A DNA stretch of 64,000 nt, taken from positions 18,492 to 82,491 of the IMG/VR virus record IMGVR_UViG_3300021964_000036. The stretch is one strand, 5' to 3'. Positions 6,313 to 31,181 of the stretch are shown here, one piece after another. Position 1 is the first letter of the stretch; every line of letters begins with the position of its first letter. Below the pieces are notes generated by a model. That model worked only from the letters and a program-made list of their open reading frames with translations. It searched no databases and had not been told where the DNA came from. The stretch comes from a virus. Both the position numbers and the translations under genes were made by a program.

Positions 6313-6374
6313 TTTTTCCAAAAAACCTGGATTGGTTGGAATATATAATGGAAAAGTTTCAATATCGCAGGTGT

Positions 6375-6382
6375 GATATATA
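6375..6382 (+). promoter_or_regulatory. putative late promoter GATATATA
   Basis: About 25 nt before ATG 6406. Confidence 0.65.
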
Positions 6383-6405
6383 AAAAGCAAAAAAACACAA
6401 GTAGA

Positions 6406-9198
6406 ATGGACTTACTTAATCAATTAAAAACTCTTAGGGAAACAACCACTAATCCTGAGGTTAAATCGATTTGCGAATCCCACATTAATAAAATACAAAA
6501 TGGGGAATCTGTAAATGAATCCGCAATCCTTGAATCTGTTGACCAGGTAGTAAAGGAAAGCGAAGGCGAAACCGCTGCAAACCCTATCGAAATGCTAAGA
6601 CAGCAAGAAATAGAAAGATCTAAATCAGCAGCTCAAAGGCTAATGGAGTCTTGGGGTGGAATTGGATCTAATTCTTCTAGAAATTCAGGATCTTATGTAG
6701 ATGGTAAGAAAGAAGATACTGCGGAGGTTACTAATATTTCAGAGAGTCTTAAAGAGGTAGCAGAAAAGGATCCTTCAGCTAAAGCATTCCTCGATTCACA
6801 GGCAGTTAACAACCTTGGCGTTTATGAGTCTATTCTATCTTTAAAAGGAACAGGTATTTATGAACATCCAAATGTTAAGATACTTTGTGAAAAGTTCACT
6901 CACCTTCTAAAGAATAATAATACCCCTGAATTTTTATTAGCAGAGGCATTTGTCCAAGAACTACAAAACTTCAACTGGGATAACAAAGTAAAAGCTGCTG
7001 TAGAAGCAATTAAGGAAAATATTGCTTCACTTAGACCTGAAATTGAGGTTTCAAAAGCTTTATATTCTATCGAAAAGAACGCTGGTTCTGATTTTTATTC
7101 GCCAGTAACAGAATCTCTGAATAAGTGGTTGATATCAGAGAATAAGTCCGTTGCACTTTTGTCCAAAGAGATCTCAAGATGGTCTTTCAACCCAACGGTA
7201 AGAAATCTTGTGAATACGCTTTCTCTAATGGAATCTTCAGAGTCTAAGCTAAGTATTCCTGTAAACAACGGAAATTCTTCGGTGAGGAAAGTTTATTCTC
7301 CAGTTCATGTTGCTGGTGGCAAAACTGTATTTACTATTGGTAACAACGTATTTGAAGGTAACTCTGAGGGAATCAAGAGACTTTCAAATGTTGAATATGC
7401 TTCTCTACCAGAAGAGTTTAGATCTTTGCTAGAGTCATTCTATTCTCCGATGGTTAAGATAAATGAGAGTGGTTTAAGTTTCTATGTTGGAAACAGCAGC
7501 TTTAAGATAGTGGAAGAGTCTGATTCGGTATCAATATATTCTAGGGATAATAAGATTAACTTTAGTGACAAAACTCAGCTGGCTAAGCAGATAGCTCTAG
7601 AAATATCTGGAAGCTTAGGAGTTAACGAATCAAAAGCGGTTTCTGACATAATTAACCTTTATGAAAACTTCTCAAATGTTGTTGAACTTGATTTTGCTAA
7701 AAGATTAGAGTCTAAAGTTTTCGAAGGTGTAGCAGTAAACTTGATTAAATGGAACTCAAACCTTTACCTCAACAGGATCAATGAAGGTATGAATGAGAAT
7801 TCCTTATTCCAAGTAAACGGTACACAAGCTACTTCGATGGTTAAGGATCTGATGAAATATGATATTTCTGAAGGACTAACGGAGTTCTTGGATGGAGAGA
7901 ACAGGATTAAGTCAATTATGCTTAATGACAGAAAGCAAATTATTGATAACATCGCTATCGTTGAAAACGAGATTAACAAAATCTCACAAGCAATGTCTAC
8001 AAACCCACTTTATGAAAATTCTAAAGAAATGGTAAGAGCTAAGCATATGCTTGAGCAAGAACTATCTTCTCTTAGAAAAAAATGGGCAGCAGTTAATGAA
8101 GAGATCGAAAAAATAGAATCTTCTTCTGTTGAGGTAGAAGAGATAAACGAGGATCAGAAATTCAATGTTGGTGATTACGTAAAAGTTAAAGAGTCTGGAA
8201 ATACTGGAAAGATTATTTCTATGGATAGCACATCTGGATCTTACACTGTTTTGATGGATAATGGAAGAACCGGTGATTTCAGAATGGATGAGATTGTTGA
8301 TATTGAAGAAGCTTTAAAATCTGCTGGTGAAGAAAATCAGGAAGCTGATGAAACCCAGGAAGATGTTAAAGAGAACGAATCACCAATTGAAACTTCTGAG
8401 GAAATTCTAGAGGATACTTTAGAAGAGTCTTCTCATGATATGGCAGTAGCTCCAGAGAACAAAACAGCATCTGAAAAGGATAAAACTCCAGCCGCTACAT
8501 TAAAAGCAAATACCTCTGAGGCACCTTCGTCTAAAGATCAAGACGAAGATGGTAAAAAGGACATTGAAAAGGAAGATCATGCTAATTTGGAAGAAGCACC
8601 TGAAGGAATTGAGAAAGGGACTGATTATAGTGTCAAGCTTAAAGACTCTTTGGTAGATGAGGTCGGATATAACGTAAACGAAAATACCGAAGAAGTTGAG
8701 TCGGCTGACAACGAAATGTCTTCAGCACCTGCGGAAGGAAATTCAGAGTTATCTGAAAGAGACGTTGAAAACACAGATCAGCAATTAGCTGAAGCCCCAG
8801 GCGGAAGATCTCATGCTGATTATGATGTAAAATCTGTTAAAGGTGAAGAGTCAAACCCAGATATGGTAAAAACAGACCCAGATATGGCATCTGCTCCTGG
8901 TGACGGTACAGATAAAGAATTACACCACGAAATTAGTGGAGAGATGGGATATAACCTTGATGAAGCGGATGACGTGGAAAAAACAGACCAGCAATTAGCA
9001 GTTGCTCCTGGTGGTGAGCACAAAGCAGAATATGATGTTGAAGTAGCTAAGGCAGAAAAAGCAGCAGCTGATATCATGAAAACCAACCAGGAATTAGCAG
9101 AAGCACCAGCAGCTGGCACTGATGCTGAAACAGATGTAGAGGTTAACACAGAAATGGGATATAACCTTGACGAAAGCGAAGAGTCAAAAAAAAACTAA
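6406..9198 (+). CDS. large acidic late protein, probable prohead core/head-associated protein with KOW/SH3-like domain and acidic repeats; possible frameshift extension to 9374
   Basis: Many (V/I/L)xES sites, KOW-like FNVGDYVKVKESGNTGKI, coiled coil. Start set at ATG 6406, after the late promoter. Confidence 0.6.
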   Translation: MDLLNQLKTLRETTTNPEVKSICESHINKIQNGESVNESAILESVDQVVKESEGETAANPIEMLRQQEIERSKSAAQRLMESWGGIGSNSSRNSGSYVDGKKEDTAEVTNISESLKEVAEKDPSAKAFLDSQAVNNLGVYESILSLKGTGIYEHPNVKILCEKFTHLLKNNNTPEFLLAEAFVQELQNFNWDNKVKAAVEAIKENIASLRPEIEVSKALYSIEKNAGSDFYSPVTESLNKWLISENKSVALLSKEISRWSFNPTVRNLVNTLSLMESSESKLSIPVNNGNSSVRKVYSPVHVAGGKTVFTIGNNVFEGNSEGIKRLSNVEYASLPEEFRSLLESFYSPMVKINESGLSFYVGNSSFKIVEESDSVSIYSRDNKINFSDKTQLAKQIALEISGSLGVNESKAVSDIINLYENFSNVVELDFAKRLESKVFEGVAVNLIKWNSNLYLNRINEGMNENSLFQVNGTQATSMVKDLMKYDISEGLTEFLDGENRIKSIMLNDRKQIIDNIAIVENEINKISQAMSTNPLYENSKEMVRAKHMLEQELSSLRKKWAAVNEEIEKIESSSVEVEEINEDQKFNVGDYVKVKESGNTGKIISMDSTSGSYTVLMDNGRTGDFRMDEIVDIEEALKSAGEENQEADETQEDVKENESPIETSEEILEDTLEESSHDMAVAPENKTASEKDKTPAATLKANTSEAPSSKDQDEDGKKDIEKEDHANLEEAPEGIEKGTDYSVKLKDSLVDEVGYNVNENTEEVESADNEMSSAPAEGNSELSERDVENTDQQLAEAPGGRSHADYDVKSVKGEESNPDMVKTDPDMASAPGDGTDKELHHEISGEMGYNLDEADDVEKTDQQLAVAPGGEHKAEYDVEVAKAEKAAADIMKTNQELAEAPAAGTDAETDVEVNTEMGYNLDESEESKKN
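8761..9180 (+). repeat. 2 x 210 bp (70 aa) degenerate intragenic duplication
   Basis: DVE.TDQQLA.APGG...EMGYNLDE occurs twice; the GA(G/A)ATGGGATATAACCTTGA copies start at 8941 and 9151. Confidence 0.8.
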
Positions 9199-9425: not shown

Positions 9426-9785
9426 ATGGCAAAGGCTTACGTAAGAAATAAAGATCTGATGGCTGCAGTATTAGAGTCAAAAGAAAAAGGAGAACTTACT
9501 TCAGAGACTATAGAGATGTTTGGTCTTATGGTTCAGGGTATATCTAAAAAGATGGCATATAGGGATCCCGAAGACAAAGCTGATTGTATGGCTTTTGCAA
9601 TGGAGGATCTTTGCAAATATTGGAATAGATTCAATCCAGAAAAATCAAACAATCCGTTTGCTTACTATACACAAATAGCAAAAAATGGGTTTGCTAAGGG
9701 GTGGAAAAAAATACATCCTCCGAAGGCACCTAAAACAATACCATTTTCATATATCACTGGAGACGACAATACGTATAATGTGTAA
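9426..9785 (+). CDS. gp55: T4 gp55-like late-transcription sigma factor
   Basis: YVRNKDL at the N-terminus and FNPEKSNNPFAYYTQIAKN, typical of gp55. Confidence 0.85.
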   Translation: MAKAYVRNKDLMAAVLESKEKGELTSETIEMFGLMVQGISKKMAYRDPEDKADCMAFAMEDLCKYWNRFNPEKSNNPFAYYTQIAKNGFAKGWKKIHPPKAPKTIPFSYITGDDNTYNV

Positions 9786-9787
9786 GA

Positions 9788-10273
9788 ATGCCAGATATAA
9801 AGAAAATAAAACCCAATGGGGATTATAAATCTGGACTGTATGTACCACAGAACCCAGATAAATATATCGGTGATGTTCACAATATAATATGTAGGTCCTC
9901 TTGGGAATTTAGATTCTGTCGCTATTGTGACAATAACGATCGCATCTTGAAATGGAGCTCAGAGCCAATATCAATTCCTTATTACAACCCTCTTGATAAA
10001 AAAGAGCACCAGTACCATGTTGATTTTTACATGCAAGTGCTAAAGGACGATGAGCAAACTCAGGATTGGATTATTGAGGTAAAACCAGAAAAGCATTTTA
10101 AGAAACCTATTCTTGAGGGTAATAGTACTTTAAAGAAGTTAAAGTCTTATAATCACAAGATGCAAATTTGGATTACCAATCAGGCTAAATTCAAAGCAGC
10201 TCAGAGGTGGGCAGATGCTAGGGGCTATAAATTTGGTGTGGTTGATGAGAATTTTTTATTTAAGAGCAAGTGA
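9788..10273 (+). CDS. gp4: head completion nuclease (T4 gp4-like, TnsA-like fold)
   Basis: P.NPDKY.GD...I..RSSWE..F...CD....ILKWSSE...IPY..P.D...H.Y.VDF...IEVKP...NQAK. Confidence 0.88.
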   Translation: MPDIKKIKPNGDYKSGLYVPQNPDKYIGDVHNIICRSSWEFRFCRYCDNNDRILKWSSEPISIPYYNPLDKKEHQYHVDFYMQVLKDDEQTQDWIIEVKPEKHFKKPILEGNSTLKKLKSYNHKMQIWITNQAKFKAAQRWADARGYKFGVVDENFLFKSK

Positions 10274-10875
10274 AATCCTTTGAAGATCAAATAAAGGATC
10301 TAAGGTCCCAATATTCGTCAATAGCACAACTATCCTCTGAATCCAACACTTACTTCAAAAAAAGGTATGGACCTGGAGGTGAAGGAGGGACTTTGGATTT
10401 TAATGGAAATTTTATACCTGGTAAGATCTATACTTGTGAATATAAAACAAAAACAAGAATATCCGATAAAACCCCTTTTATAGACAGATCTCCGATATTC
10501 ATCTTTATGAAGAAGGAGAGATATAAGGGTTCCGAAATTCTAATATCTGTTGATCTAAATGTTATTCCACCTGATTATAGGGGAAATATTATGTTTAAAC
10601 TATGGGATCAGTACTCCTCATTATTTAAAGACAACTCTAAATTACCATACACATCTCAAATACCTATTACTAACATAACAACTTCTTTTAATAGATTACT
10701 TGCTGGAACTGGGTTTCAAACAGCGTTAACTGGATTCAAAAGGGAATATGCTGATAATATTAAGGTAGTTGACTATAAAGATTGGGTAAGAATTCCATAC
10801 CTTTCTGATTTTATAATAGAGGGTCAATCTACTAACGGGATATATAATGATTATAGATCGAAATTAAATGCTTAA
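10270..10875 (+). CDS. gp2: DNA end protector-like protein (T4 gp2-like)
   Basis: PGKIY...Y..K....PF.D..P...LN.IP motifs; located between gp4 and the portal. Confidence 0.6.
   Translation: MKSFEDQIKDLRSQYSSIAQLSSESNTYFKKRYGPGGEGGTLDFNGNFIPGKIYTCEYKTKTRISDKTPFIDRSPIFIFMKKERYKGSEILISVDLNVIPPDYRGNIMFKLWDQYSSLFKDNSKLPYTSQIPITNITTSFNRLLAGTGFQTALTGFKREYADNIKVVDYKDWVRIPYLSDFIIEGQSTNGIYNDYRSKLNA
10839..10846 (+). promoter_or_regulatory. putative late promoter GATATATA for the portal genes
   Basis: Within the 3' end of the upstream gene, about 65 nt before ATG 10910. Confidence 0.55.
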
Positions 10876-10909: not shown

Positions 10910-12529
10910 ATGGCCGGATTTAACGAAAACCAAGAAGGAAGCCCGATATTCCAAAGAATCAGAGAGTCTGTAAAGTCCCTCAGTAACTTTGGTATGCGTT
11001 ATGGCGACATGGTGATTAAGAATTCCCAGGCAATCGGAACTACGGAGGCTGAATTCATGAAGAGGCAATCTGTCGATGACGAAAGTTTGCTATATTCATT
11101 AGGCCGACAAGATACCACAACAAGGCAGTTTATTGGTTATTACGATAAGGATTATGCAGGTAAGAGGGATTATCTTCGAAAGTTTGCACTTAATCCTGAG
11201 ATAGAATACATTCTAGATACTGTTTGTGATGAATCTATAACTTTTGACTCCTATAATTTCTTTGCGTATCCAGCTTTCCTGAACCTTACTGATGTTAAAG
11301 ATAAAGTTAAGGATAGAATACAAGAGAACTATAAGAAGCTTTACGACATGTTTGGCTTCACTGATGATATTACTGCCTGGCAGTATTTCCGCCAATTGAT
11401 GGTAGACGGATTCTTAGCCTTTGAGATTGTTTATGATGATAAGGGTAAGGGAATAATTGGGTTTAAAGAACTTGATGCTACAACACTAATGCCTTCGGTC
11501 GAAAAACAACCTGATGGTACTTATTTAAATGTTTGGTATCAATATCCAAAGGACATCAATAAGAGGAGAATGCTTTATGATTCCCAGATTATTTACATAT
11601 CCTTTGCTAAAGGTAATACGGTTTCAAGAGTTAGCTACGTTGAGAGACTAATAAGACCTTACAACGTACTAAGAATAATTGAATATACCAGGGTTATTTG
11701 GTCTGTAATGAATGCTTCATTTAGAATGAAGATGACTGTTCCTATTGGTTCTAGATCTCCCCAAAAATCTATGCAAACCTTGGGCGAGCTTATGAGCATT
11801 TATAAGGAGGACATTAGATTTAATGATGAAAGTGGTGAATTAACAGTAGATGGTAGACCCAAGATACAATTCTATAAGAATTACCTTATGCCTTCTGGTG
11901 TCAACGGTACACCAACTATAGAGCCCATTAATAATGCTGGTCCTAATTTAAATGATCCGCAGCCGCTTGCTTATTTTTATGATAAACTTGTCCAAGAATC
12001 CAAAGTACCTTTTTCCAGATTCCAAGGTCCTGATGGTGGGTCTATTGGAAACTATTCAAACGGAGCAGAGGGACTTGACAAGGAGGAAATAAGATTTGGT
12101 AAGTTCATAAGTAGACTGAGGTCAATCTTCCAAGATATCCTGGTTAAGCCACTATGGATACAAATGTGTAAGGATTTTCCCGAACTTGAGAAAGATTATC
12201 TATTTAAGAGTCAACTTGGTCTTGAATATGTTTCTGACAATCCTTTCAGAGTCAATCAGGAAATTGAAGCTATGCTTAAGAAAAAGGATCAAATCGATGG
12301 AATGTATGGGTTAATTGACGATTCTGGTGAACCTTTTTTCTCTCTTGCATATCTTATAGAATCTCATTTAGGAATGAATGCTGATGACATTAAAGCTAAT
12401 AGAGAAGCAAGAGAAAAAAGGAAAGAGGAGGAAGCTAAGAAAGCGAAAGAAGAAGGTGCTGAGCCGGAAGAAGAAGGTGCTGAGCCGGAAGAAGAGTCTC
12501 CAGCAGAAGAAACACCCCCTCAAGAATAA
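10910..12529 (+). CDS. gp20: portal protein, copy 1 (T4 gp20-like)
   Basis: PEIE..LD.V.DE, VDG, SYVERLIRPYN.LRI.E, KVPFSR and EEIRF.KFI.RLR motifs. Confidence 0.88.
   Translation: MAGFNENQEGSPIFQRIRESVKSLSNFGMRYGDMVIKNSQAIGTTEAEFMKRQSVDDESLLYSLGRQDTTTRQFIGYYDKDYAGKRDYLRKFALNPEIEYILDTVCDESITFDSYNFFAYPAFLNLTDVKDKVKDRIQENYKKLYDMFGFTDDITAWQYFRQLMVDGFLAFEIVYDDKGKGIIGFKELDATTLMPSVEKQPDGTYLNVWYQYPKDINKRRMLYDSQIIYISFAKGNTVSRVSYVERLIRPYNVLRIIEYTRVIWSVMNASFRMKMTVPIGSRSPQKSMQTLGELMSIYKEDIRFNDESGELTVDGRPKIQFYKNYLMPSGVNGTPTIEPINNAGPNLNDPQPLAYFYDKLVQESKVPFSRFQGPDGGSIGNYSNGAEGLDKEEIRFGKFISRLRSIFQDILVKPLWIQMCKDFPELEKDYLFKSQLGLEYVSDNPFRVNQEIEAMLKKKDQIDGMYGLIDDSGEPFFSLAYLIESHLGMNADDIKANREAREKRKEEEAKKAKEEGAEPEEEGAEPEEESPAEETPPQE
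12449..12490 (+). repeat. 2 x 21 bp tandem repeat (EEGAEPE) in the portal tail
   Basis: GAAGAAGGTGCTGAGCCGGAA occurs twice exactly. Confidence 0.9.
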
Positions 12530-12539
12530 GAAATAGAAG

Positions 12540-14141
12540 ATGGCAGGTTTTTTAGATTACGTACAGGAACGATCCTTTTTAGGCAACCTTTATAAGAATT
12601 TGTCTAAGATAGGCAGATTTGGGATGGAGTACGAGGATATGGTTATTCGTAACTCTCAAGCTGTTGGTGCTACTGAATCTAATTTTTTTAATGAGCAAGG
12701 TACCGGGTTTACCGAGAATAATGCATTCTATTGGACGCTAGGATATCAGGATACAAAGGTAAGAAAATACATTGCTTACTTTGATAAGGACTATTTAGGA
12801 AAAAGAGACTTTCTGAGAAAGTTTTCATTAAATGGTGAGATTGATTTTATTCTCGATACACTAACTGATGATGCTATAAACTTTGATGATAAGAACTTTA
12901 TTGGTTACCCCTCTCTTGCAAACATAGACATCAAGCCAGAGTTGGTTGATAAGATAGATGATGTTTATCGAAATATTTATATGCTTTTTGGCTTTCAGCA
13001 AGGTATAACAGCATGGCAGTATTTTAAGCAATTCCTAGTTGATGGCTTCTTAGCCTTTGAGATAGTGTATTCTACTGATGGAAAGAAAATTGTTGGGTTT
13101 AAAGAACTTGATCCCACATCTTTACAACCCGCTACTGAACCACAGCCAAATGGTGAGTTCCAACAAATTTGGATACAATATCCGGAGGACAATAAGATGA
13201 CTCGAAAACTGAAGAGTGAGCAGGTCATTTATATTTCGTATGCAAAGGGAAATACGATTTCTAGAGTAAGCTATGTTGAAAGGTTGATTAGATCCTATAA
13301 CATTTTAAGGATCATGGAAAATACCAGGGTTATTTGGAATGTGATGAATGCCTCTTACAGACTTAAGTTTGTTATCCCAGTTGGTTCTCAGTCTCAACAA
13401 AAAGCCATGCAAACTCTCGGGCAGCTAATGTCTGTTTATAAGGAAGAGATGGAAATAAACGATTCATCTGGCGAACTAACTGTAAATGGTAGACCAAAGG
13501 TTCAATTCTACAAGAATTATCTTTTCCCGGAAAAGGACGGACAATCCCCACAAATAGAGACGTTAGATCCGAATGGCCCTGATTTCAATGTAATGGACAA
13601 TGTTCTTTACTTCTACAATAAATTAAAACAGGATTCCAAAATTCCTTATGCAAGGTTCGCTAATAGAAATGGAACACCTGCTAATTACCAGATAAGCATA
13701 GATCAATTAGAAAGGGATGAAATAAGGTTTGAAAAATTCCTTACCAGACTTAGATCAATTTTCCAAGAGATATTGGTAAAGCCATTGTATATTCAGATGT
13801 GTCTTGATCACCCGGAGTTAGCTAAGGACAGGAATTTCAAATCCAATCTTGGATTAAGCTACACGAGGGAGAACATGTTTGAAGAATTTATCCAACTTCA
13901 GAACTATACCAAGAGAGTGCAGTTTATAAACGACCTTGGAGAGATGAAGCAGAAAATAGGGGAAGAGGAAGAATCCTATTTCGACAAAGACTTCTTAATA
14001 AAAAGATACCTTGGTTTAACCGTGGACGAGTACAAGAAGAACGAAAAATACAAAGAAATCGAATCTAAAATAGCCGAGGAAAAAGCTAAGAGTCAAGAAT
14101 CTTCAGGTGGTGACGAAGGTGGTGAGTCATTTACCCTCTAA
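12540..14141 (+). CDS. gp20: portal protein, copy 2 (T4 gp20-like)
   Basis: Same motifs as copy 1 (WQYF.Q..VDGFLAFEIVY, SRVSYVERLIR, DEIRFEKFLTRLRSIFQ); full length. Confidence 0.88.
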   Translation: MAGFLDYVQERSFLGNLYKNLSKIGRFGMEYEDMVIRNSQAVGATESNFFNEQGTGFTENNAFYWTLGYQDTKVRKYIAYFDKDYLGKRDFLRKFSLNGEIDFILDTLTDDAINFDDKNFIGYPSLANIDIKPELVDKIDDVYRNIYMLFGFQQGITAWQYFKQFLVDGFLAFEIVYSTDGKKIVGFKELDPTSLQPATEPQPNGEFQQIWIQYPEDNKMTRKLKSEQVIYISYAKGNTISRVSYVERLIRSYNILRIMENTRVIWNVMNASYRLKFVIPVGSQSQQKAMQTLGQLMSVYKEEMEINDSSGELTVNGRPKVQFYKNYLFPEKDGQSPQIETLDPNGPDFNVMDNVLYFYNKLKQDSKIPYARFANRNGTPANYQISIDQLERDEIRFEKFLTRLRSIFQEILVKPLYIQMCLDHPELAKDRNFKSNLGLSYTRENMFEEFIQLQNYTKRVQFINDLGEMKQKIGEEEESYFDKDFLIKRYLGLTVDEYKKNEKYKEIESKIAEEKAKSQESSGGDEGGESFTL

Positions 14142-14152
14142 TTATTAGTTAG

Positions 14153-15160
14153 ATGCATCTAAAAGAAAGATTAGCTTCAAAGACCATATTGGTCGTTGGT
14201 GATATTATTCTGGATCACTACATTTATGGTAAAGTTTATAGGGTTTCCCCAGAAGCTCCAGTTCCTGTTGTCCTTAAGGATAAATCTACATATTGTTTAG
14301 GAGGATCAGCTAATGTTGCCCAAAACATAACATCCTTTGGAGCAAAATGTTATTTACTTGGGGTAGTTGGTGAGGATAGTACTGCTATAAAAATTCATAA
14401 CCTTTTATCTGAGAAAGAGGTCCTACCAATGCTTGTAAAAGACCCTTCGAGACCAAGTACGGAAAAAACAAGAATTATTGGGAATGGTCATCAGATAGTA
14501 AGAATAGATTCTGAAGTTGATGTTAATGTCTCTGAAGAAATATCAGATAAGGTATTTGAAATGTTCATGTCTATAGTGGAAGACCTGGATGGTGTAATTA
14601 TTCAGGATTATGGTAAGGGATTGCTCAGTAGATCTTTGGTTAAAAGGATTTTACAAGAGACTAAGGAAAGAAACATACCAACACTTACTGATCCCAAGGA
14701 TAAAGATTTTTCTAAATATACAGGATCTGATTGGATTAAGCCAAATTTCTTAGAATTTAAGGATTCCCTTGGCATTCCTTCAAACAGATCTTTGGATTCT
14801 TTGGATGTTATAAAGTTAATTGACGAACTTAAGCAAAAATTTAACCTAAGCAGTGTACTTTTGACACTCTCTGAAAATGGGATGATTGCAAGGTCTAAGT
14901 TTGATTTTGAATCTATTGATGGTATCCAGATAGAGGTAACTGATGTTTCCGGTGCTGGTGATACGGTAAGTGCTGTTTTTATGCTTCTTTTATCCAGTAA
15001 TATTTCTCTTAAGGATTGCTTAAGAATATCCAACCTTTCTGGATCTATCGTTTGTCAAACATCTGGGGCTATTCCGATTGACATTAATACCCTATTCTCT
15101 ACCTTGCATAAATACTCTTGGATTGTGAGTGATAAAACGGGGGAACCAGTTCTCCTATAA
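14153..15160 (+). CDS. rfaE1: D-glycero-D-manno-heptose-7-phosphate kinase (RfaE/HldE domain I, PfkB family)
   Basis: ILVVGDIILDHYIYG.V.RVSPEAPVPV, GGSANVA.N, DYGKG, DPK, KPN, DVSGAGDTV. Confidence 0.92.
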   Translation: MHLKERLASKTILVVGDIILDHYIYGKVYRVSPEAPVPVVLKDKSTYCLGGSANVAQNITSFGAKCYLLGVVGEDSTAIKIHNLLSEKEVLPMLVKDPSRPSTEKTRIIGNGHQIVRIDSEVDVNVSEEISDKVFEMFMSIVEDLDGVIIQDYGKGLLSRSLVKRILQETKERNIPTLTDPKDKDFSKYTGSDWIKPNFLEFKDSLGIPSNRSLDSLDVIKLIDELKQKFNLSSVLLTLSENGMIARSKFDFESIDGIQIEVTDVSGAGDTVSAVFMLLLSSNISLKDCLRISNLSGSIVCQTSGAIPIDINTLFSTLHKYSWIVSDKTGEPVLL

Positions 15161-15212: not shown

Positions 15213-16559
15213 ATGAAAAAGGAACTCGAGATTTTTATCCAAATAGAGAGCCAATCTGGAAACGGATCTCAAAAGATAAAGCAGGATTTAATATCTGACA
15301 ATTTGTCGGAAAAAATGGAATATCTGTTGGATGTTTGTTTTAATCCATTTGTTACTACAAAGCTTCATAAGATTAATCTAATAGAATATACTCCAGGAAG
15401 AAAGTATTCAAAGGATCCTGATGAATTTTGGAATACGTTTAAGGATTTGGTCGAAGAACTTAAGCAAGCACCAGCAGCTAATGATTCTCTTAGACAAAGG
15501 GCGGAAGATTTGATAGATCATACTTTTTCGCCGGATACTGAGGAGGATATGGGAATTAGAAAGATGCTTATGAAAGTCCTTACAAAAAGGATGAACATTG
15601 GTCTTGGAGCTAAATTAATTAATAAAGCTGTTGGCAGGGAATTGGTCCCAGATCCTTCGTTAATGCTAGCCACTGATAAACAAGAGGAAATTGAAAAGTG
15701 GGATAAAATTTATTGTGAAGAGAAATATGATGGGGTTCGTGTTATTGCAATGATGAATCCTGACACCTCATTTTCATTTTACACCCGTGCATTCAACGAA
15801 CTTGACTCATCGAAGCTTAGTAACATTTCTAGGGATTTGTCTGCTATTTCAAAGAAAGCTGGCCACAGTTCTATTTTTTACGATGGAGAGCTAACTGACT
15901 TAAATAGAAAGTCTGTCTCTGGAAAAGTGACACAGATTCTTAAAGGCACAGCCCCAGACGATATAGATGCAAACTTCCTTTTTAATGTGTTTGATTTAGA
16001 GGATAGCTCAACACTTGAAAAGGGTAGGGGCTCTGTCCTTTATACGGAGAGAAGGAAGAGATTGGCTGAAACCTTAGATCTTCTCCCACCAGTATCAAAC
16101 ATAAAACTAGGCCAGATGTGGGAGGTTGGTTCTATGGAGGATACTTTGGTTATCTACAAGGATATTGTTAACCAGGGTGGTGAGGGTGTTATATGTAAGA
16201 ACGATCATCTTTATGAGTGTAAAAGAAGCAAAAGTTGGATAAAGCTTAAAGAGGTTAATGATTGCGATCTCGAGGTTGTTGGCTGGTATCCAGGTGAGGG
16301 AAAAAGAGAAGGTTTTATAGGTGGGTTAGTATGTACTGATAAATCTAAAACCCTCAACGTAAAAATTGGTGCTGGATTTACTGACAAGGATCTAGAAATA
16401 CTAAGTGCAAACCCAGATGACCTGGTAGGTAAGATTGCAGCTGTACAGTATAACGTAACAATTACTGACAAGTATGAAAATCGAAGTTTATTCCTTCCAA
16501 GATTCATAGAAATAAGGAACGATAAATCTGACCCAGACGACATGTCTAACTTGTTCTAA
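15213..16559 (+). CDS. lig: ATP-dependent DNA ligase (T4 gp30-like)
   Basis: EEKYDGVR (motif I), DGEL, FNVFD, EGVICK, WIKLK, and SLFLPRF..IR.DK. Confidence 0.95.
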   Translation: MKKELEIFIQIESQSGNGSQKIKQDLISDNLSEKMEYLLDVCFNPFVTTKLHKINLIEYTPGRKYSKDPDEFWNTFKDLVEELKQAPAANDSLRQRAEDLIDHTFSPDTEEDMGIRKMLMKVLTKRMNIGLGAKLINKAVGRELVPDPSLMLATDKQEEIEKWDKIYCEEKYDGVRVIAMMNPDTSFSFYTRAFNELDSSKLSNISRDLSAISKKAGHSSIFYDGELTDLNRKSVSGKVTQILKGTAPDDIDANFLFNVFDLEDSSTLEKGRGSVLYTERRKRLAETLDLLPPVSNIKLGQMWEVGSMEDTLVIYKDIVNQGGEGVICKNDHLYECKRSKSWIKLKEVNDCDLEVVGWYPGEGKREGFIGGLVCTDKSKTLNVKIGAGFTDKDLEILSANPDDLVGKIAAVQYNVTITDKYENRSLFLPRFIEIRNDKSDPDDMSNLF

Positions 16560-27427: not shown

Positions 27428-29434
27428 ATGAACGAGTCTTTATTGAATGAAAATCTCCTCTTTATCCTTGAAAAGCAAGATAATAGTCTTTCTGTCAACG
27501 ATAAAAACGAAGATGGCTATGTACTCAAAGGTATAGCAGCACAATTTGGAAAGGAGAATAATAATAACAGAATCTATGAGGAAGGTGAATACCTACCCCA
27601 TTTGGAGTACCTAAAAGATAAGATAGGTCAGAAAAGATTGGTTGGTGAATTAGACCATCCTGAAAAATTCGATGTTTCTCTTAAGAACATTTCTCACGTT
27701 GTTGAAGACCTTGTTTATGATAAAGACGGAAGAGTATTAAATATTAAGGTTCGTTTGCTTGACACACCAGCTGGACAAATTGCTAAGAAGCTAGTTGATG
27801 CTGGTATCCCTCTTTCTATTTCATCTAGAGCAGCTGGAAATGTTGGTCCTGATAAGAAGGTCCAAATCAAAAAAATCTTTACATACGATCTAGTAGCAGA
27901 TCCTGGTTTTCAGGATGCTCAACTTGAAAGAGTTTACGAGAGTGCTGGTTTTGATGCTTTTGAATTTCAAGAAAGGTCAAAGAAGTCAATCGTAAACAAC
28001 TTAGAGTGTGTAAACGAATCGCTAGGTTTAGAAAATGAATCTGGAGTGAAGATATATAAAGTTGAAAATAGCGAAGAATTCGAAAAAATCCTTAATCAAG
28101 ACAAAAATAAATCCAACATTATGGAGGCCAACAAAGAATATGTTACTGCTGACGAGCTTAATAAGTATTCTATCTTTTTGAAAAATAAGATGGATGAGCT
28201 TGAAACGCAGATTTCTGAAATGAAACAACAAGAAACTCAAGTTTCTGAAAGTGAAAACGACAGTGTAGACTGTAAAGCGCTCGAGGAAAGGGTTGCTAAA
28301 TTAGAGAAGTACTCCGAGTATCTTGCTGAAAATCTAGAAAGCGCTATCAAGTACGGCGAGTATTTGGCAGAAAATCTAGATAGCAGCATTACTTATTCTA
28401 AGTATCTTGCTGAGAATTTAGACAAGACTATCTCTTATTCAAAGTATTTGGCCGAAAATGTTGATAAGGGTATTTCTTATACCGAATATGTAGCTGAGAA
28501 TGTTGATAAGTCTATTGATTATTCTAAGTATTTAGCAGAAAAACTAGACGATGGTATTCAATACACAGAATACGTGGCTGAAAATCTTGATAAGAATATA
28601 GCTTACTCTGAGTATCTAGCAGAAAATGTTGATAAGAACATTGCTTATTCTGAGTATTTGGCAGAGAATCTTGATAAGGGTATTTCTTACTCTGAATATC
28701 TTGCAGAGAACTTGGATAAAGGAATCGCTTATTCTGAGTACATCGCAGAAAAATTAGATCAAGGCATTAATTACACAGAGTATCTTGCTGAAAATCTAAA
28801 CAAAGGTATCGCTTATTCCGATTACCTAGCTGAAAAGCTCAATGGCAATATTGCTAACACTGAAGCTCTTCACGAAAGCGCAAAGACAGAAAAAACTCCA
28901 ACACTAAACGAAAGTGCTAGAGAAAATGCTGAAAGCGCATCTAAAACTGAATTGGTTGAATCAGGATTTGCTGGAGATTATGAAAATCTCGGAAGCAAAA
29001 TTGATTCTCTAATTGAATCAGTCAAAACACAAAAGACTGAGGAAAATATAAACGAGGCACAAACGAAAGTTATGCCGACTGCTCAAACACAAAAAGCAGA
29101 TGAGGCAATCAACGAAGCCAAAGAAGAAAAATTGGTAGAGTCATCAGGTCACAAGTTTATTGATGAAATGCCAGAAGATTACGCTCCGTTATGGGAGTCA
29201 CTAAATGAAAGCCAAAAGCAATCAGTGATTGCACAATCAGCTTTCTATAACTTAGAGACTACATATCAGATCAAGAATTTCTGGTCAACACGTCAGCTTG
29301 GTGCTAAACCAGTGGGACTTCAGAAACTTCAAGAGAGCCAAGAAACACCAGAGCCTAAGACGGCTACAGCCCCTCAGGGGTATTCAAATGATTACCTTAA
29401 TTGGGTCGCTAAGTCGCTCGAAGGTAAGTTTTAA
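27428..29434 (+). CDS. gp21: prohead protease (gp21-like) fused to scaffolding/core domain
   Basis: N.NNRIY, GELDHP, SH, LLDTPAG, ISSRAAG, YDLVADPGF; C-terminal repeat and coiled-coil region; precedes the capsid gene. Confidence 0.9.
   Translation: MNESLLNENLLFILEKQDNSLSVNDKNEDGYVLKGIAAQFGKENNNNRIYEEGEYLPHLEYLKDKIGQKRLVGELDHPEKFDVSLKNISHVVEDLVYDKDGRVLNIKVRLLDTPAGQIAKKLVDAGIPLSISSRAAGNVGPDKKVQIKKIFTYDLVADPGFQDAQLERVYESAGFDAFEFQERSKKSIVNNLECVNESLGLENESGVKIYKVENSEEFEKILNQDKNKSNIMEANKEYVTADELNKYSIFLKNKMDELETQISEMKQQETQVSESENDSVDCKALEERVAKLEKYSEYLAENLESAIKYGEYLAENLDSSITYSKYLAENLDKTISYSKYLAENVDKGISYTEYVAENVDKSIDYSKYLAEKLDDGIQYTEYVAENLDKNIAYSEYLAENVDKNIAYSEYLAENLDKGISYSEYLAENLDKGIAYSEYIAEKLDQGINYTEYLAENLNKGIAYSDYLAEKLNGNIANTEALHESAKTEKTPTLNESARENAESASKTELVESGFAGDYENLGSKIDSLIESVKTQKTEENINEAQTKVMPTAQTQKADEAINEAKEEKLVESSGHKFIDEMPEDYAPLWESLNESQKQSVIAQSAFYNLETTYQIKNFWSTRQLGAKPVGLQKLQESQETPEPKTATAPQGYSNDYLNWVAKSLEGKF
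28051..28063 (+). promoter_or_regulatory. internal late promoter for nested scaffold
   Basis: GATATATAAAGTT begins 70 nt upstream of the in-frame ATG 28121, which has an A-rich leader. Confidence 0.6.
28121..29434 (+). CDS. putative nested in-frame scaffolding protein (gp22-equivalent)
   Basis: In-frame ATG after the protease domain, internal promoter, leader AAAAATAAATCCAACATT. Confidence 0.5.
   Translation: MEANKEYVTADELNKYSIFLKNKMDELETQISEMKQQETQVSESENDSVDCKALEERVAKLEKYSEYLAENLESAIKYGEYLAENLDSSITYSKYLAENLDKTISYSKYLAENVDKGISYTEYVAENVDKSIDYSKYLAEKLDDGIQYTEYVAENLDKNIAYSEYLAENVDKNIAYSEYLAENLDKGISYSEYLAENLDKGIAYSEYIAEKLDQGINYTEYLAENLNKGIAYSDYLAEKLNGNIANTEALHESAKTEKTPTLNESARENAESASKTELVESGFAGDYENLGSKIDSLIESVKTQKTEENINEAQTKVMPTAQTQKADEAINEAKEEKLVESSGHKFIDEMPEDYAPLWESLNESQKQSVIAQSAFYNLETTYQIKNFWSTRQLGAKPVGLQKLQESQETPEPKTATAPQGYSNDYLNWVAKSLEGKF
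28310..28855 (+). repeat. 13 x 42 bp degenerate coding repeat (YSEYLAENLDKGIx)
   Basis: 13 contiguous 14-aa units counted in the translation. Confidence 0.92.
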
Positions 29435-29459
29435 AAAACCTAAAAAAAATTAGTAAAAA

Positions 29460-31181
29460 ATGAAACTAATCAACGAAGCAGAAATCTTCGAAACCTGGTC
29501 TCCTATCATCGAGCAGAAGGCTGGAATTCAAGATGCTGAGAAAAAAGGATGGTTGAGCAAGTACTGCCACTACCATTCATTAAACGAGTCTGCTGGTGCA
29601 TATCAGTCACTAGCAACTGTAAACGGTATGGGTGCCGTAGCTCCACCCGCATACCCAGGTGGGTATAACTCCACTGGTTCTGCAGTAGGTACGCAAGCAA
29701 ACGCTGCTTTCTACAACGCTGCTAACCAAGGTTCAGGAGATAAGTTTCCTTCACTTCTTCCTTTGGCAATTCAGGTTGCTGCGAAGACAGTTGGATTCGA
29801 TATCGTTCCTGTAATTCCTATGTCAGGTCCTACTGGCGTACTTTCTTACCTAGATTACGTATACTCAGGTGGTAAAATCAGTCCTGCATCTGCTGGCGCA
29901 TCTGCTGCTGAAGCCCTTGCAACTGCACCTTCTATGATCAAGGTAGAATTGACAAACGCTGCAGCAGGATATCCTGGTAACTTTGCAGTAGGTACTACTT
30001 ACTACATCACTAACGCTTCTTCAGCTGGTGCTTACATCACAACTGAATTTGTTGGTCTTTCTAGAATCGATGGTTTCCCAATCTTCAGAATCGTTGGATT
30101 AACAGCTGGTGAAACTGTTTCTGCAGTTCTTGATGGCGGTGCTACTAAAATTGGTACTGCAGTAGATGGAAACCAAGCTGGTACTACAACTGCAAGAGCA
30201 GAATTGGTTAAAGCTCTTGAGGATCACATCCAAGGATTCTCTGGTGCTGGTTTTAACAACGACCAAGACTGGCAAGGACCATTCGTAGATGGTACTAAGA
30301 CTTACAACCCAATGCTAAGAGGTGTAGGTGAAAGCACTTACTACCAATCAATGGGTCTATCAACGTTCACTAAGTTCGTTGAAGCTGATACTTTCCAAGT
30401 AGCTGCTTCAGTAACTACTGAACAGATCCAAGACCTTAACAAGCAATTCGGTATCGACGTAATTTCTATGATCGAGAACGCATTGGTTAATGAGGTATCT
30501 CAAGCTATTAACAAGCACATCCTATCTAGAGCATTCGCTCTTGGTTGGTCTAACCACGATGAATTCTTGACTACAGAAGGTCAGAACTTGAACCTAAACC
30601 TCGTTATCGGTGGTACTGCTGGTTCATACACTATTCCTTCTTACGTAGGTAAGTCTGACACTGGTATCTCTATCGCTTCTGTTGCAGGTCCTGCTTCAGG
30701 TGGATACGAGAACTTGTCAACTCTACAGAGAAGACTATTCTCTAGAATTCTAGCTGGTGCTAACGTAGTAGCTAACAGAGGAAGAAGAGGTCCTGCTAAC
30801 TTCATCGTTACTAACGCTAACGTTGCAAGTGCATTGCAAGACATCTCTCAGTTCACTTTTGCACCTTTCTCTAACACACTAACTCAAAACAACGGTACAC
30901 TTTACCCAGTAGGTTCGCTTGCAGGTATGACTGTTTATGTTGATCAGAACATGAAGTTCGGTGATAACAGAGTATTAGTTGGTAGAAAAGGTGGTGACGA
31001 CGAACCAGGACTTAAGTTCATGCCTTACATGATGGCTGAGTCTATCCAAACAATCTCTGAGGGTACTATGTCACCTAAGATTGCGGTTAAGTCTCGTTAC
31101 GCTCTAGTAGAAGCTGGTTTCCACCCAGAAACTATGTACTTCTGTTTCCACGTGAACGTTCCTGCTGGAGGTCTATCCTAA
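29460..31181 (+). CDS. gp23: major capsid protein (T4 gp23-like)
   Basis: V.PMSGPTG, T.EQIQDL..QFGID, L.NE....INK, RRG.ANF, G..FMPY, PKIAVKSRY. Confidence 0.95.
   Translation: MKLINEAEIFETWSPIIEQKAGIQDAEKKGWLSKYCHYHSLNESAGAYQSLATVNGMGAVAPPAYPGGYNSTGSAVGTQANAAFYNAANQGSGDKFPSLLPLAIQVAAKTVGFDIVPVIPMSGPTGVLSYLDYVYSGGKISPASAGASAAEALATAPSMIKVELTNAAAGYPGNFAVGTTYYITNASSAGAYITTEFVGLSRIDGFPIFRIVGLTAGETVSAVLDGGATKIGTAVDGNQAGTTTARAELVKALEDHIQGFSGAGFNNDQDWQGPFVDGTKTYNPMLRGVGESTYYQSMGLSTFTKFVEADTFQVAASVTTEQIQDLNKQFGIDVISMIENALVNEVSQAINKHILSRAFALGWSNHDEFLTTEGQNLNLNLVIGGTAGSYTIPSYVGKSDTGISIASVAGPASGGYENLSTLQRRLFSRILAGANVVANRGRRGPANFIVTNANVASALQDISQFTFAPFSNTLTQNNGTLYPVGSLAGMTVYVDQNMKFGDNRVLVGRKGGDDEPGLKFMPYMMAESIQTISEGTMSPKIAVKSRYALVEAGFHPETMYFCFHVNVPAGGLS

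Follow-up and report, generated by a model that had tools for sequence, protein, structure and literature searches.

A genome fragment of an uncultured phage carries the gene for its portal protein twice, as an old and tightly kept tandem pair of T4 gp20-type genes that we call portal A and portal B. The stretch of DNA analyzed here (the window) spans 64,000 nucleotides, bases 18492-82491 of the 82,491-base IMG/VR record IMGVR_UViG_3300021964_000036 (CheckV completeness 29%), and the 82-kb fragment to which it belongs comes from an aquatic jumbo myophage that has not been cultured. Among the machines of tailed phages and herpesviruses, the portal is the most highly conserved; the head nucleates on it, it bears the packaging motor and gates the DNA, and it connects to the tail. 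To our knowledge, it is built in every studied case from twelve copies of one protein, and T4 and every other characterized tailed phage have one portal gene that gives rise to a homododecamer. What is new is a T4-type portal that exists as a conserved pair, with a C-terminal tip that is kept reciprocally by the two copies in different clades and with tails that in some genomes appear to have undergone gene conversion. The reading that we favor, with belief and doubt about evenly balanced, is that A and B would be two subunits of a single mixed portal ring. The pair is arranged in the window as follows:

10910..12529, plus strand: portal paralog A (T4 gp20 type), an open reading frame of 539 amino acids with no internal stops
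12530..12539, no strand assigned: spacer of 10 nt between the stop of A and the ATG of B, in which a promoter would not fit
12540..14141, plus strand: portal paralog B (T4 gp20 type), an open reading frame of 533 amino acids with no internal stops

Both proteins match the family PF07230 (Portal_T4) far above its curated cut-off of 22.9 bits, A with 198.7 bits (E 1.8e-58) and B with 215.8 bits (E 1.2e-63), and both match the portal family phrog_213 (E 6e-58 and 1e-60). Aligned by BLASTP, they are identical at 268 of 536 positions (50%) with 12 gaps and are colinear end to end, from a common N-terminus M-A-G-F to their acidic tails. A profile built jointly from the two proteins matches the solved T4-type portals 9LU6, 3JA7, and 6UZC (E ~3e-23) along chain residues 78-523, a colinear span that takes in the wing, stem, clip, tunnel loop, and crown. 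There are no other portal matches in the whole 82,491-base record. The original prediction, which was made from the letters alone, had described two adjacent and intact gp20-like frames of 539 and 533 amino acids that share all core motifs, differ throughout, and do not represent an assembly duplicate. Frames, coordinates, and strand were borne out, and the description of the motifs holds as well: 163 alignment columns are conserved and identical in both copies and 29 are conserved but different, with another 85 conserved in A only and 92 in B only. Contigs from three other runs bridge the junction between A and B without differences (X7 over 12466-13069, X8 over 12427-12652, and X11 over 12324-13035), and the pair recurs, A then B, on 163 other contigs, which agrees with the earlier view that the duplication is not an assembly product. 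These public runs consist of contigs, so their depth is uninformative. Near-identical DNA is present in estuary and marine metagenomes from several studies. An odd joint in one further run, X6 (1904 letters skipped, 268 others between, side 21, depth 5.5), was taken to be a piece of a related organism.

The usual state of the PF07230 family, one gene per genome, does not apply to this lineage, since there are two genes here and on 163 related contigs. Among 199 related IMG/VR contigs, 160 have both genes intact and in the same order, 3 have one broken copy, 33 are cut by a contig end, and 3 are a single-portal outgroup; every contig that covers both positions thus keeps both portal genes, intact in 160 cases and with one broken copy in 3. 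The relatives fall into two clades. For clade 1, which contains the window, searches with A and B found 119 distinct contigs. Both genes are intact in 95 of these, always A then B on one strand and 2-23 nt apart; 13 carry both genes with one cut at a contig end, 6 carry one gene at a contig end, and 2 have a broken copy (L050 and L081). The outgroup contigs (L145-L147) have a single portal that is 47-49% identical to both A and B, with no second copy in their 6-kb flanks. The second clade emerged from a profile search of 1.84 billion representative proteins, which returned 286 relatives at E <=1e-30. One of these (P0001) is sister to the A clade, and its IMG/VR relatives make up the second clade, in which two adjacent portal frames occur at each of the 80 loci retained; both are full length at 65 loci, one is cut by the contig end at 14, and the first copy is split at 1 (L205). 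Each of two records with a completeness rating of 100% (319 and 290 kb) contains two portal matches and no more.

Outside these clades, the closest GenBank phage proteins are those of uncultured huge phages (LR756500, 45-46% identity) and Lak phages (~36%), followed by phages of Sphingomonas, Tenacibaculum, and Chryseobacterium. These nearest phages (35-46% identity for the uncultured huge phages and Lak) differ from the lineage described here in carrying one portal; LR756500, at 462 kb, has one portal match. An apparent second portal in LR756501 was rejected, as the extra place is a 101-amino-acid open frame matching profile positions 374-431 with 22.4 bits. A nucleotide search of phage records gave one weak partial match. 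Protein matches in GenBank phages reach no more than 46% identity, so that no cultured relative offers virion data. We also considered whether a distant portal relative of 1059 amino acids (P0144, 27% identity) is a natural portal fusion; it aligns once along B (93-346, then 352-527), so it is no fusion. The same protein has an insert of ~450 amino acids near the channel loop.

The duplication is old. In a tree of 62 unique pairs and five single-copy outgroup rows, the A copies and the B copies each form a clade with a Shimodaira-Hasegawa-like approximate likelihood ratio test (SH-aLRT) support of 100. The two clades are sisters (SH-aLRT 82) with mirrored internal branching, and their stem branches have lengths of 0.50 and 0.55. 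When 18 pairs from the second clade were added, the first copies joined A (98) and the second copies joined B (95), and a single duplication therefore predates both clades. All trees were quick IQ-TREE runs under LG+G4 with SH-aLRT support only. Both copies are under strong and equal purifying selection, and neither is decaying or evolving faster. By the Nei-Gojobori method, A has a median ratio of nonsynonymous to synonymous divergence (dN/dS) of 0.023 and B one of 0.014, as calculated from the 43 of 1891 ortholog pairs per copy with dS between 0.05 and 1.5; synonymous sites are saturated in most comparisons, and even relatives that are 92-95% identical in protein give dS above 2 or undefined. 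Across the same genome pairs, dN of A follows dN of B with r 0.96 and a slope of 0.98. The phylogeny and dN/dS of both copies had been put forward as a check when the pair was first noticed, and a copy missing or decaying in relatives had been named as an outcome that would refute the idea. That outcome was not borne out: the check found one old duplication, a dN/dS of about 0.02 for each copy, 160 intact pairs, and 3 pairs with one broken member.

Divergence between A and B is concentrated in particular parts of the protein. Of the 29 fixed differences, 16 lie in residues 326-400 of A, and 21 lie in residues 251-275 and 326-400 combined (odds ratio 14, Fisher p 1e-10). On gp20, the alignment would place the difference-rich stretches at stem helices alpha5 and alpha7 and at the inner clip, channel, and tunnel loops. 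The segments concerned, together with the clip tip, are the following:

11747..11767, plus strand: clip tip of A (amino acids 280-286), which aligns with the T4 gp20 clip tip N291-K296
11885..12082, plus strand: inner clip loop, channel loop, alpha7, and tunnel loop of A (amino acids 326-391), with A-B identity of 0.26-0.45 versus 0.79-0.88 within the A clade
13521..13715, plus strand: inner clip loop, channel loop, alpha7, and tunnel loop of B (amino acids 328-392), paralog-specific and conserved within B

For the three loops alone (inner clip, channel, and tunnel), A-B identity is 0.26-0.35 and identity within clades is 0.79-0.89. At the inner clip loop of clade 1, B has the ancestral K-D-G, which aligns with T4 R339-D340-G341, and A has G-V-N-G. 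Mean net charge also differs, at -0.5 in A and +1.1 in B for the tunnel loop and at -0.8 in A and -2.4 in B for the inner clip loop. Conservation is lowest in the crown (A-B identity 0.26), and the N-terminal region is conserved, with an identity of 0.75 within each clade. The clip tip does not vary: every one of the 58 aligned sequences, whether A, B, or single-copy, has G280, S283, Q285, and K286, and the last two residues align with R295-K296 of T4, where the terminase and neck dock. We took the domain limits of gp20 and the roles of T4 residues from the accessible text of PMC4493910, where the clip tip N291-K296 is described as docking the terminase and neck and the N-terminal region of gp20 as being needed for head initiation. 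Neither copy looks ancestral as a whole. Of the 29 fixed differences, 10 have the outgroups on the side of A, 10 have them on the side of B, and 9 are ambiguous.

The C-terminus of each protein is a low-complexity, acidic tail rich in Gly, Pro, and Ala, and it is here that the two copies show a reciprocal pattern:

12410..12526, plus strand: C-terminal tail of A, acidic and Pro/Ala-rich, without a hydrophobic tip, ending PPQE
14130..14138, plus strand: C-terminal hydrophobic tip of B, F-T-L-COOH

The end [FVI]T[LI] is found in 61 of 62 unique B copies, and no A copy of the window's subclade (0 of 46 unique) has a tip. Scored more broadly as [FVILM][TKNEGS][LI], the tip is distributed over the unique pairs of the two clades as follows:

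Basal clade 1, 16 unique pairs: tip on both copies 12, B only 3, A only 1, neither 0
Window's subclade, 46 unique pairs: tip on both copies 0, B only 46, A only 0, neither 0
Second clade, 46 unique pairs: tip on both copies 0, B only 0, A only 44, neither 2

At least one copy bears the tip in 106 of 108 unique pairs, and which copy does so differs between clades. In one of the two pairs scored as neither (L241), both copies share an identical variant end. In the single-copy outgroups, a low-complexity linker likewise leads to a final residue that is aromatic or hydrophobic. Furthermore, the final 27-45 nt of the two genes are near-identical in some basal genomes (27 of 27 in L126, 26 of 27 in L114, and 41 of 45 in L121). 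Set against the saturation of the rest of the genes, this near-identity indicates gene conversion of the tails. No gene conversion was seen in the gene bodies, where the low-complexity ends alone stand out. Such homogenization points to tails that may face the same partner, and a tip that can be supplied by either paralog is what would be expected if both sit in one assembly. The reciprocal retention of the tip, the 10:10:9 division of ancestral states, and the occurrence of K-D-G in B only within clade 1 may reflect a complementary partition between the copies, in patterns that were defined post hoc.

We favor the mixed ring because both copies keep the clip tip, the stem, the wing, and the N-terminal region; because their divergence is symmetric, with ancestral states split between them; because either copy supplies the tip, which is never clearly lost from both; and because the tails are homogenized within genomes. 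On this account, A and B would be old paralogs of the T4-type portal protein, both of them needed. Most likely they would be transcribed late as one unit and translated in similar amounts, and they would then co-assemble into one ring at the unique capsid vertex, with alternating A6B6 as the simplest arrangement. Both subunits would retain the common surface that docks the terminase and neck (the clip tip) as well as the wing that faces the capsid, and the elements that line the channel and inner barrel (stem helix and inner clip, channel, and tunnel loops) would have split into two fixed versions. The flexible acidic tail with its hydrophobic tip, pointing into the capsid, may be required on one type of subunit only. 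A more specific form of the idea, which we hold a little more tentatively, is an alternating A6B6 portal whose channel has two kinds of loops and whose true six-fold symmetry matches the six-fold tail, with a tube that is perhaps likewise mixed. A hetero-oligomeric portal had been part of the original prediction; it stands as the best fit to the symmetric divergence, the reciprocal tip, the gene conversion of the tails, and the invariant clip tip, and its central step, co-assembly, is one that we infer.

A serious rival, if in our estimate an unlikely one, is that each paralog forms a homo-oligomeric ring of its own and that both rings are essential, one being the true portal and the other a coaxial or accessory ring that could be stacked on the portal inside the head, anchor an inner core, or act in prohead assembly only. 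All of our conservation arguments fit there too: retention, equal constraint, and co-transcription would be expected equally under two rings, and channel loops that are sharply paralog-specific and conserved within each copy are what different channels would produce. The poorly conserved crown fits as well, as does the duplication of the tail-tube gene in the same genomes (described below), which may mean that extra ring-forming parts are a theme of the lineage. Two dedicated rings sit less easily with the invariant clip tip and the N-terminal region that both copies retain, or with a symmetric divergence that leaves neither an ancestral nor a derived copy. The loss of the tip from A in one clade and from B in the other is hard to reconcile with fixed and distinct roles, and the homogenization of the tails by gene conversion in some genomes speaks against them in the same way.

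The remaining explanations have less to recommend them. We find it improbable that A and B are alternative portals that nucleate two kinds of particles or serve under different conditions or in different hosts, a reading that the original prediction had offered as two specialized vertices or particle types. Both copies do look complete and would appear functional, but with 2-23 nt and no promoter-like motif between them, independent regulation is unlikely; partly redundant copies should sometimes vanish, and no covered contig lacks one; and if every particle needs the tip, its absence from one copy in 46 of 46 and 44 of 46 pairs would cripple one type. Host sensors of portal proteins exist, the Avs-type NLR proteins, and one copy might be a decoy against such portal-sensing immunity or, as another nonvirion role, an assembly chaperone or a regulator. 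This we consider very improbable. A copy without the C-terminal tip in each clade would suit it, but constraint is equal over the whole length, including the clip tip, stem, and wing, and which copy is tipless changes between the clades, A in one and B in the other, despite the orthology of the copies across them. With a second portal fold, a fold-sensing host would also have more to sense, not less. Finally, an assembly artifact or a recent redundant duplicate on its way to loss has next to no probability. One broken copy in 3 of 163 covered pairs is all that hints at it; set against this are the 50% identity, the saturated synonymous sites, the same order on 163 contigs from many samples, the junction bridged in three other runs, a dN/dS of about 0.02 in both copies, and the nature of the L050 break, a homopolymer deletion. 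With the duplication, its age, its retention, and equal constraint all established, artifact and decaying copy are ruled out.

Several points weigh against the mixed ring. To begin with, we know of no virus with a heteromeric portal, which agrees with the literature that we searched, and all of the sequences behind the proposed contact between A and B are metagenomic. Retention and equal constraint are expected to the same degree if each copy forms its own essential ring. Rate covariation does not set the pair apart: in the 40 of 62 genomes with all five genes compared, rho is 0.74 (0.53-0.86) for A and B, 0.65 for the gp2-like gene and A, and 0.63 for the gp2-like gene and B, so that the A-B value is not significantly above those with the gp2-like gene and equals or falls below the best control in 25% of 1000 bootstraps. 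The region comprising residues 251-275 and 326-400 was picked post hoc, with the data already seen, and the tip pattern was likewise defined after the data had been seen. Just 5 fixed differences between A and B hold across both clades, 4 of them in residues 327-390, and therefore most of the 29 are specific to clade 1. The mapping of domains onto A and B is an alignment of sequence profiles, not a fold model. Lastly, the three broken copies could be errors or real losses. In L050, B has lost 1 nt from an A5 run, a homopolymer change that is typical of sequencing error; in L081, portal A (L081:6001-7620) is conserved apart from one in-frame TAG at codon 201, which may reflect a sequencing error, a true nonsense mutation, or stop-codon recoding; and in L205, from the second clade, it is the first copy that is split.

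In most respects A and B resemble T4 gp20 (PF07230; PDB 3JA7, 6UZC, 9MKB, and 9LU6/9LU7), whose family they match and with which they align over all domains, down to the Q-K of the clip tip opposite T4 R295-K296. They also stand within a T4-like head and neck gene set that includes gp2-, gp4-, gp17-, gp18-, gp19-, gp21-, and gp23-like genes. What differs from T4 is that there are two genes, 50% identical and kept as a pair, and that identity with the solved T4-type chains is low (single-sequence E ~1e-10). T4 itself offers a precedent for duplicated virion proteins in gp23 and gp24, a major capsid protein and its vertex-specialized paralog, which occupy different places in one symmetric shell. 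Both copies are retained there as they are here, but gp24 has a clearly derived role and position, whereas the portal pair is symmetric, without an ancestral-looking copy, and concerns a ring and not a shell. Duplicated subunits of homo-oligomers commonly go on to form heteromers, and heteromeric rings of this origin include the fungal V-ATPase proteolipid ring (Vma3/Vma11/Vma16), the alpha and beta rings of the eukaryotic proteasome, CCT, and MCM2-7. The portal pair shares with these a duplicated ring subunit, purifying selection on both copies, and losses that appear complementary (the tip and the 10:10 split). The difference is that co-assembly and subunit positions have been demonstrated experimentally for the V-ATPase, proteasome, CCT, and MCM rings, and are deduced for the portal pair.

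A full-text literature search, beyond which lay subscription journals and supplements, found no paper that analyzes paralogous or heteromeric portal genes; the phrase "copies of the portal," which could be taken for paralogs, refers to the 12 subunits. The closest report is a freshwater metaHi-C preprint (bioRxiv 10.64898/2026.02.18.706586), which states that some phages, including ones with 260- and 414-kb genomes, have a second copy of genes such as the portal. In its accessible text this is a passing remark, without analysis of a tandem pair, its age, its conservation, or a mixed ring. The preprint reports diversifying selection on one copy, in contrast to the strong purifying selection on both that we observe, and its freshwater phages may or may not belong to the present clade. 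The accessible text of a review of jumbo phages (PMC7824862) treats the portal as a single gene. If the mixed ring is real, tailed phages and herpesviruses would have their first known heteromeric portal, and it would be a natural case of a viral ring that gained complexity through duplication and complementary loss. A long-kept and equally constrained pair bears on whether the portal ring must be homomeric, on how the mismatches among the 12-fold portal, the 5-fold vertex, and the 6-fold tail are handled, and on which channel loops matter when very large genomes are packaged and retained. The pair is, moreover, a clean case in nature of a symmetric machine gaining parts, and it can be put to a direct test, as two genes suffice.

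The pair lies within a T4-like head-morphogenesis set with a large terminase, a prohead protease, and a gp23-type capsid protein. The neighbors of the pair and the signals around it are given below, all of them on the plus strand:

9426-9785, plus strand: gp55-like late sigma factor, by phrog match (phrog_429, phrog_218, and phrog_234 cover the gp2-, gp4-, and gp55-like trio)
9788-10273, plus strand: gp4-like head closure protein, by phrog match, in the group directly upstream of the pair
10270..10875, plus strand: gp2-like DNA end protector, by phrog match, adjoining A upstream
10839..10847, plus strand: candidate gp55-type late promoter core GATATATAA, 62 nt before the start of A and inside the 3' end of the gp2-like gene
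14153..15160, plus strand: pfkB-family sugar kinase (PF00294, E 1.2e-27), 11 nt 3' of B
15139..15156, plus strand: hairpin resembling a terminator, followed by a T-rich tail, where the kinase gene ends, a consensus match of a kind found 3 times in the region against 4.8 expected
27428-29434, plus strand: prohead protease of the head module (27428..31181; matches phrog_207, PF03420, and PF07068 across the module)
29460-31181, plus strand: gp23-type major capsid protein of the same module, under the same matches (PF07068 at E 9.6e-41)
6375, 10839, 23830, 24590, 27394, 28051, 38815, 41468, and 43356, plus strand: copies of GATATATAA, most of them shortly before the starts of structural-looking genes

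The protease and gp23-like genes thus lie 13-17 kb downstream of the portal pair; a DNA ligase and a clamp-loader-like gene are also found downstream in the window, after the kinase. Farther upstream, the record encodes the large terminase, a tail sheath, and two tail-tube-like genes.

These surroundings are consistent with one late transcript that would include A, B, and, in this genome, the kinase. The window has 9 copies of the GATATATAA motif, a candidate core of late promoters for the gp55-like sigma factor, against an expectation of 1.49; all are on the plus strand, and 0 of 100 shuffles reach 9. The motif is found just before the protease and other late-looking genes too, and a scan of the window finds none between A and B. 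In relatives, the core GATATATA recurs upstream of A within coding sequence, so its conservation is inseparable from coding constraint. The signals between the two genes are likewise those of an operon: across the 95 pairs, 2-23 nt separate the genes, ATG is the start codon of B without exception, and no promoter motif intervenes. Sigma-70-type promoters turned up less often than chance predicts, and the window has no tRNA genes. The kinase is probably the last gene of the A/B transcription unit in this genome and appears to be a variable passenger of the operon, with an ortholog in the flanks of at least 25 of 62 unique clade 1 genomes (flanks may be cut).

The portal is not the only duplicated ring-forming part of these genomes. 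Two adjacent tail-tube-like genes lie outside the window, right after the tail sheath gene:

Record positions 15397-15951 and 15968-16546: tail-tube-like genes of 184 and 192 amino acids, matching phrog_32623 and phrog_45

The two are 55% identical. Two adjacent tube copies were found in 8 of 8 two-portal records tested, from both clades, and the single-portal LR756500 has one; the portal and tube duplications therefore share a distribution. Tube paralogs occur in contractile injection systems (Afp1/Afp5 and Pvc1/Pvc5) and in T4 (gp19 with gp48, gp54, and gp3). As in those systems, more than one gene has the tube fold, and here two such genes adjoin the sheath gene. The Afp, Pvc, and T4 pairs are, however, far more diverged, and their members have distinct places in the tube or as initiator or terminator, in contrast to the 55% identity of the present pair.

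Two further observations concern proteins encoded upstream of the portal genes. Window positions 6373-9198, ahead of the late sigma gene, encode a protein of 941 amino acids whose C-terminal half consists of acidic repeats with A-P-x-G motifs; it has a weak SH3-like match and otherwise matches no family. The gp4-like protein (9788-10273) also matches the N-terminal domain of TnsA-like endonucleases (PF08722, E 4e-18), in agreement with reports that T4 gp4-type proteins are nucleases.

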